The notes beneath the pieces were generated by a model, which saw nothing but the letters and a program-made list of their open reading frames with translations, had not been told where the DNA came from and did no database searches. The position numbers and the translations under genes were made by a program. DNA of 6,280 nucleotides from a virus. Taxonomy: Duplodnaviria; Heunggongvirae; Uroviricota; Caudoviricetes. This document shows positions 5,841-6,280 of the stretch, one piece after another (position 1 is the first letter of the stretch; the number at the start of each line of letters is the position of its first letter). The stretch lies in IMG/VR virus record IMGVR_UViG_2671180435_000010; one strand, 5' to 3'.

Positions 5841-5993
5841 ATGATTTACACTAATCAGCTTCGTTACAGTGGCAAAGATGGCATCTATTTCCACTTAAGA
5901 GACAATGTAGATGCCTTCTTAACCTTATCAGCAACTGAAAACATGGAATTTGATAGCCCTATGCAGGTGACTACACAGAACATGCAATTATGA
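5841..5993 (+). CDS. 5' segment (50 codons) of the gene downstream of the tape-measure gene; closed by TGA at 5991-5993
   Basis: RBS AAAGGAG 5828-5834, 6-nt spacer, ATG 5841; translates [50 protein letters not shown]. Below the ORF-track size cutoff. Likely the N-terminal part of a longer tail gene (see next feature). Confidence 0.5.
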
Positions 5994-6280
5994 AGGAAGC
6001 TTATTATTAACTCGTCAGGGTCAATTAGTAGAAAACTTCATTGACACTCTGGAAAACTGGCGTGACCAGAAGCAGATTATTTCTGTTATCTGTAAAGATG
6101 GAATTAAAATTGACGATTCCATTATTACCAACTTTAAAGCCTCTAAAGATGTTACTATCTCTAACGGTCTTCGTATCCAGCTAACTTTTCAGGAAATTAA
6201 CTTTAAAGCAATCGTAGGTCAAACTGATATTTCAGCAGCCACTGGCAAAACGGCTACCACAAATGACGGTGGTGTGACCA
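5971..6280 (+). CDS. continuation of the downstream tail-region gene in the +1 frame, open to the window end (3' partial); no start codon of its own
   Basis: Frame 1 is open for 103 codons from 5971 to 6280 (..[96 protein letters not shown]) with no in-frame ATG/GTG/TTG before 6274; an open stretch this long is unlikely by chance in AT-rich DNA. Implies a frame change relative to 5841..5993. Confidence 0.55.

Follow-up and report, generated by a model that had tools for sequence, protein, structure and literature searches.

The DNA analysed here, referred to as the window, is a stretch of 6,280 nucleotides from the IMG/VR virus record IMGVR_UViG_2671180435_000010. It contains an intact tape-measure gene followed by a spacer and by a tail gene that is split between two frames (Table 1). 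On the + strand, an ATG at 5841 begins 6 nt beyond the ribosome-binding site AGGAG (5830-5834), and three-frame translation of 5841-6280 showed that this frame runs for 50 codons until a TGA at 5991-5993 ends the ORF. In the +1 frame (phase 5842), no stop follows the one at 5968-5970, which leaves 103 codons open (5971-6280). This open stretch (5971-6280) is devoid of ATG, GTG and TTG codons, the ORF listing gives none there, and no ribosome-binding site was found for it. Where the locus is complete, the open run in the +1 frame reaches 204 codons. At the base composition of the window (36% GC, stop-codon probability 0.071), the chance of a 103-codon open run is ~5e-4 and that of a 204-codon run ~3e-7, and the latter is so improbable that the downstream frame must be coding sequence rather than noise. 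The initial annotation had described a well-initiated ORF of 50 codons followed by an open +1 frame without canonical start, the switch of frame occurring somewhere inside 5971-5990. All these coordinates hold, and the switch could be placed at 5988|5989.

Table 1. Features of the window and of the related chromosomal elements of E. coli, the element genes being listed in their order.
Feature	Position in the window	Strand	Description
Tape-measure gene, intact, 726 aa	3504..5684	+	Pfam TMP_3 2e-21, phrog_4036 4e-93
Spacer between tape-measure and tube-initiator genes, 156 nt	5685..5840	+	Element-specific; two inverted repeats, then AGGAG
5' fragment of the tube-initiator pseudogene	5841..5993	+	Codons 1-49 homologous, junction codon TTA, premature TGA
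Deletion junction	5988..5989	+	74 nt missing compared with relatives (alignments to phages and E. coli TUM1881)
3' part of the tube-initiator pseudogene	5989..6280	+	+1 frame; phrog_3721 3.3e-57, Dit_like 1.7e-8
TUM1881 element			Inserted inside a DUF72 gene
PT109 element			Inserted inside a DUF72 gene
10_253 element			Inserted between ymdF and wrbA, a site shared with the S. sonnei island
FORC_069 element			Inserted between yciI and tonB
Element gene 1			Optional Dam methylase
Element gene 2			HTH protein of ~315 aa (311-317); PHROG 'replication initiation protein' ~1e-10, DnaD_N weakly
Element genes 3			Several small ORFs, then 236-aa and 68-aa proteins without assigned function
Element gene 4			Tape measure of 682-726 aa, then spacer of 156-173 nt
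Element gene 5			Intact tube initiator of 256-262 aa
Element gene 6			Convergent large serine recombinase of 507-547 aa, at the element edge

Both halves of the split gene were matched by the same profile, phrog_3721, with E values of 4.6e-26 for the first and 3.3e-57 for the second. Residues 1-49 align to profile positions 1-51 and the second half to positions 76-173, positions 52-75 being absent. An intact relative matches the Pfam model Dit_like (PF21821) over positions 2-118 with 73 bits, and a conceptual fusion of the two window halves matches it over positions 65-118 only, with 35 bits. A protein of the ancestral type was also compared with known structures and matched chain A of PDB entry 9NDY, named 'Tube initiator protein (gp018)', with an E value of 3.5e-114. 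In the cryo-EM study of the Felixounavirus Bas63, gp18 (called 'TI') is a head-proximal component of the baseplate hub that lies beside a fragment of the tape measure (PMC12609058). Full-length homology was found, with matches to phrog_3721 and 9NDY and with Dit_like above its cutoff, and the gene occupies the position directly downstream of the tape-measure gene (3504-5684, then 5841) that it has in phages and chromosomal elements alike. The frame is interrupted within the Dit-like domain by a deletion and a premature stop, and an IS21 element takes the place of its last 7 codons. The ribosome-binding site and the start codon at 5841 match those of intact 262-aa genes annotated by PGAP, and the first codon of the 3' part, a TAT, corresponds to Y75 of the intact protein, this part running off the end of the window. 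The best 120 of 1,119 homologous protein clusters are, every one, 254-263 aa long, and intact homologous proteins are annotated in E. albertii, E. fergusonii, Citrobacter, Salmonella and Shigella. The window gene is a pseudogene of a tail tube initiator of the Felix-O1 type, 262 aa long when intact, and not a working member of this family.

Alignment of the window to three Felixounavirus genomes revealed one clean gap of 74 nt, located between ...ACATGCAAT and TATGAAGG..., and an identical gap was obtained against E. coli TUM1881, the closest intact chromosomal relative. The placement of the junction is uncertain by 1 nt (a shared T), and a repeat search of the window found no longer microhomology or flanking repeat there. 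Since 74 equals 3×24 + 2, the sequence beyond the junction is shifted into the +1 frame, and putting the 74 nt back from any of the three phages gave one uninterrupted ORF. BLASTN against annotated phages retrieved 258 records, mostly Felix-O1-like phages of Escherichia, Salmonella, Shigella and Citrobacter, and among the phage matches listed the tube-initiator gene matches in two pieces that span ~490 nt in the phage as against 416 nt in the window. With 0-1 nt of microhomology, the deletion probably arose by illegitimate recombination or replication slippage.

The deletion takes 24-25 conserved residues (codons 50-74) out of the Dit-like domain. Eight of the 25 are invariant across all 29 aligned homologues, and 24 are identical in three Felix-like elements and four phages; the three elements and three of the four phages carry the same stretch throughout, SP116 differing at one residue, and FORC_069 differs at five. 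An AlphaFold2 prediction of the closest intact protein, made from a 29-sequence alignment, was unusable (mean pLDDT 40, pTM 0.27). On the basis of conservation in the sampled relatives and of the coverage of the Pfam model, we claim that the deleted residues are likely to be structurally essential. We are highly confident that 5841-6280 is the remnant of one tube-initiator gene of the Felix-O1 type disabled by a genuine 74-nt deletion. Translation from the ATG at 5841 halts after 50 codons at the TGA at 5991-5993; what remains of the gene is out of frame and lacks its own start codon. The product would be at most a 50-residue N-terminal peptide, presumably without function, and no functional tube initiator would be made.

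The initial annotation had proposed instead a single-base indel and had considered that the draft sequence itself might be wrong. A 1-nt deletion does yield the same +1 phase change, and two genuine scaffold gaps, both wrongly sized, do lie in the window, at 2244-2499 (256 N for 263 real bases) and 2559-2590 (32 N for 5). However, what is missing in the alignments to three phages and to TUM1881 is 74 nt and not 1, and no repeat that could collapse an assembly lies beside the junction. Moreover, all 12 assemblies fetched, among which are the closed chromosomes CP104423.1, CP146292.2, CP037997.1 and CP110404.1, have the same bases across the 80-nt junction and throughout 5685-6280, and all 5,992 non-N bases of the window equal those of a closed S. 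sonnei chromosome (locus L006). By exact-protein look-up, thousands of assemblies carry the tape measure and the 50-aa fragment. At least 1,000 contigs have an exact match to the 50-aa product, which Shigella sonnei annotations list as a hypothetical protein (e.g. FORC11_1046); the deletion is common to every copy of the S. sonnei island allele compared. The case against a sequencing error is thus the agreement between independent assemblies, some of which possibly share reference-guided biases, although such a shared bias is unlikely to be the cause of the junction given the closed long-read chromosomes. A single-base indel or an error in the draft is, in our view, very improbable.

Three further readings accept the sequence and interpret it otherwise. 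A programmed +1 (or -2) ribosomal frameshift would fuse the two frames into one protein, as could be expected from an upstream frame with a good ribosome-binding site and start codon and a long, open downstream frame without start. However, the context CAA-UUA-UGA-AGG contains no slippery, prfB-like or CUU-UGA-C-like motif, the homologues compared in phages and E. coli elements are all single uninterrupted ORFs and the best 120 of the 1,119 protein clusters are all of full length, the fused product would still be short of 25 conserved Dit-like residues, and the gene is also truncated by IS21 and in most strains by IS1. We therefore consider recoding extremely unlikely; the initial annotation had already ranked it below an indel for want of a shift motif. 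That the locus holds two separate genes, the second with an unconventional start, is just as hard to sustain: the downstream frame does reach 204 codons in full copies, but it lacks ATG, GTG, TTG and a ribosome-binding site, its first homologous codon is residue 75 of a one-domain protein, and no split homologue was found among the best 120 of the 1,119 protein clusters, so that the earlier view of one split gene stands. Finally, by the formal symmetry of any indel, the 74 nt could be an insertion in the relatives, for instance a small mobile insert, and the window could represent the ancestral state. This symmetry is the sole point in favour of such a scenario, to which we give almost no credence: the residues encoded by the 74 nt are conserved in four phages and four elements and lie inside the Pfam Dit_like model, 74 nt do not make up whole codons, which leaves the form that includes them as the only one that is a gene, and the best 120 of the 1,119 clusters are all full length.

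Intact tube-initiator genes show an element-to-element dN/dS of 0.05-0.07 in the N-domain, which corresponds to purifying selection. Between the island allele and the intact alleles, the 3' part differs by 4 non-synonymous and 17 synonymous changes (dN/dS ~0.06), and the island allele contains no stop beyond the one caused by the deletion. As the differences are mostly synonymous and no extra stop has accumulated, the gene appears to have been under selection until shortly before the deletion, and these substitution patterns point to a recent inactivation of a formerly functional gene.

The window gene is homologous over its whole length to the Felix tube initiator (gp18 of Bas63/JohannRWettstein; ORF68/Felix01p127 of Felix O1). 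The element and Felixounavirus proteins are ~75% identical overall and at least 95% identical over residues 9-175, the nucleotide identity over 5865-6299 in window coordinates is 90-98%, and in the island as in Felixounavirus the gene lies immediately downstream of the tape-measure gene. In contrast with its phage counterpart, the window copy is a pseudogene with a 74-nt deletion and a 3' end replaced by IS21, it resides in a bacterial chromosome instead of a virulent phage, the 156-nt spacer lies between it and the tape-measure gene in place of an overlap, and the first 8 codons and the C-terminal third of the island tube initiator have diverged. The tape-measure gene and all upstream sequence are far more diverged from the phages than 5865-6299. 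A sharp mosaic boundary is seen at ~5865, the sequence upstream, including the first 8 codons, being element-specific and the sequence onward 90-98% phage-like. In the N-domain of the tube initiator, element-to-phage dS (0.24-0.44) overlaps phage-to-phage dS (0.24-0.35), hence the alleles of three of the four elements fall within the allelic diversity of the phages; the FORC_069 tube initiator is far more diverged from the phages (dN 0.20, dS ~2). The mosaic boundary at ~5865 implies that genetic exchange has taken place recently between the chromosomal elements and lytic phages.

The exact tape-measure protein of the window is recorded under the name 'tape measure protein [Shigella sonnei]'. 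It is 32% identical overall to that of Felix O1, with 69% identity over the first ~50 aligned residues, only 10-30% in the middle, and a last ten residues (LLSSSYPEEE) identical to those of Felix O1. This pattern suggests that only the ends, which would dock into a Felix-type tail, are constrained. By analogy with the description of the Bas63 hub, both the tape measure and the tube initiator probably keep the parts expected to contact phage-encoded partners. Further upstream in the window, the 327-aa 'ORF' at 2191-3174 is an artefact of reading through Ns; the real gene there encodes a 236-aa protein without assigned function that starts in the first gap and ends at 3174 (8961-9671 in L006).

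In Felixounavirus, the last base of the tape-measure gene is also the first base of the gene that follows, so that the two overlap without spacer. In the window, the spacer contains two inverted repeats, with arms at ~5697-5705/5741-5749 (within the repeat pair 5686-5708/5738-5760) and at ~5780-5788/5814-5822 (within the repeat pair 5777-5792/5811-5826). The first reads CTACGTGA-N34-TCACGTAG, then CTCACGCTTAACAGA, and the second CAAAGGCTT/AAGCCTTTG. Comparison with the spacer of the intact copy in E. coli TUM1881 showed a difference at 1 of 159 positions. Each of the five elements compared has retained the first repeat module, and PT109 and FORC_069 carry a second copy of it just upstream of the tape-measure gene; the module is also located at ~12048 in locus L017 and at ~11448 in locus L019. 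A scan of 5500-6280 detected no sigma-70 promoter and no intrinsic terminator. The module may be a regulatory site preceding each tail gene. We also considered the repeat as a control site read by a helper phage, a proposal left unsupported by the 86-kb genome of Felix O1, in which neither the 22-nt spacer motif (at most 3 mismatches) nor the paired repeat is present.

In S. sonnei, the island that carries the window gene is located between ymdF (after rutG) and wrbA-yccJ-agp. Beyond the window, homology of the pseudogene ends at window-equivalent position 6534, where the last 7 codons, NPNKKY*, have given way to an IS21-family element (IstA/IstB). At window-equivalent position 6439, 8 of the 12 S. 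sonnei assemblies (L004, L007-L009, L012-L015) have an IS1 that the other 4 lack; the insert is 777 nt long, consistent with a 768-nt IS1 and a 9-nt target duplication, and this polymorphism could be used as a within-species marker. The large serine recombinase beside wrbA is itself split by an IS3-family element. At the left end of the island, upstream of the window, L006 3604-5351 encodes a 189-aa small serine invertase-like recombinase as well as a fusion of a Dam methylase with a resolvase-type HTH_7 domain; the left-arm content differs among elements, PT109 having an AP2-family protein there and FORC_069 a hypothetical protein. Pseudogenisation driven by insertion sequences and decay of islands are an established pattern in Shigella genomes. 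The locus resembles this usual decay, with a small deletion and IS1, IS21-family and IS3-family insertions that are fixed or polymorphic within the lineage, and nothing in it is unusual by comparison. The 74-nt deletion is one of several lesions that have immobilised and degraded the S. sonnei copy. The initial annotation had suggested a decaying prophage: the decay is borne out by the IS21, IS1 and IS3-family lesions, but the prophage is not, as the only virion genes of the relatives are the tape measure and the tube initiator.

A match to the 3' end of the tape-measure gene, the spacer and the tube-initiator gene is present in 404 of 5,426 complete E. coli genomes (~7%), and PGAP annotates in the E. 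coli relatives an intact 'phage baseplate protein' after the tape measure. The deleted junction was not found in the complete E. coli genomes, where the matches listed come as two pieces spanning 154 nt and include no long match of at least 99% identity across the junction. We opened four intact E. coli elements, TUM1881, PT109, 10_253 and FORC_069, and all four share one compact layout of 10-12 kb (Table 1). None of the four contains head, terminase, sheath, tube, wedge, fibre or lysis genes, and their remaining ORFs have no structural match in Pfam or PHROG. Two of 11 element proteins match the Felix O1 genome, namely the tape measure (32%) and the tube initiator (75%); the ORFs upstream of the tape measure show no BLAST similarity to gp65/gp66 of Felix O1 that would designate a tail assembly chaperone. 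As these relatives have no other virion genes than the tape measure and the tube initiator, the S. sonnei island does not descend from a full prophage, and we rejected a decayed complete prophage because the intact relatives, at three chromosomal sites, lack other virion, packaging and lysis genes.

Elements of this family also occur in Citrobacter, Salmonella and E. albertii, at three or more chromosomal sites, and a scan of one genome per species returned 3 loci only (Citrobacter sp., E. albertii and S. flexneri). An IS21-like element interrupts the tape-measure gene of Citrobacter sp. ANG330, and in S. flexneri only a partial tube-initiator gene is present. Ten element proteins were scanned for defence systems with PADLOC, which yielded no more than marginal matches of the HTH type. 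The matches in IMG/VR are provirus predictions from isolate genomes, often beside unrelated prophages, and are uninformative on packaging.

These features recall the PLE of Vibrio cholerae, a satellite of the virulent myovirus ICP1 that integrates via a large serine recombinase (PMC12987554). The chaperone, tape measure and baseplate hub protein of PLE are 20%, 20% and 41% identical to those of ICP1 and substitute for the phage proteins, leading to chimeric, slightly shorter tails, and putative tmp genes have been noted in other PLE-like elements and in cf-PICIs (PMC12987554). Like PLE, the enterobacterial elements are compact and chromosomal, contain a large serine recombinase and a replication-initiator-like gene, lack capsid, terminase and lysis genes, and carry part of a tail-assembly set, namely a tape measure and a hub protein that are homologous to those of a virulent myovirus. 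In both cases the hub protein is closer to the phage than the tape measure is (75% versus 32% here, 41% versus 20% in PLE11). Unlike PLE, they have no tail-assembly-chaperone homologue that we could find, their hosts are Enterobacteriaceae, their presumed helper is Felixounavirus, and the copy in the window is dead. In the literature searched, we found no description of an enterobacterial element family of this type, which a large serine recombinase would mobilise and of which the island in the window may be a dead copy. By this analogy, we tentatively propose that the elements could be satellites or tail-assembly parasites of virulent Felix-O1-like myoviruses, as PLEs are of ICP1, a proposal that we hold to be possible but somewhat less probable than its contrary. 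The elements would supply their own tape measure and tube initiator with phage-like contact surfaces, and these proteins could form chimeric tails or poison the tails of the helper. As the tape measures of the phages are 742-748 aa long and those of the elements 682-726 aa, such chimeric tails would be slightly shorter.

Taken by itself, the split frame is a pseudogene of an ordinary kind, present throughout the lineage in a Shigella genome rich in insertion sequences, and 5841-6280 should be annotated as one disrupted 'phage baseplate/tube initiator' gene and not as a case of recoding or a draft error. Resolving this pseudogene exposed a widespread and conserved family of elements. If these are indeed satellites or tail-interference elements, the chimeric-tail model of PLE and ICP1 would extend to enterobacteria, with a bearing on the therapeutic and typing use of Felixounavirus phages against Salmonella, E. 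coli and Shigella, and the S. sonnei copy would then provide a natural loss-of-function control.
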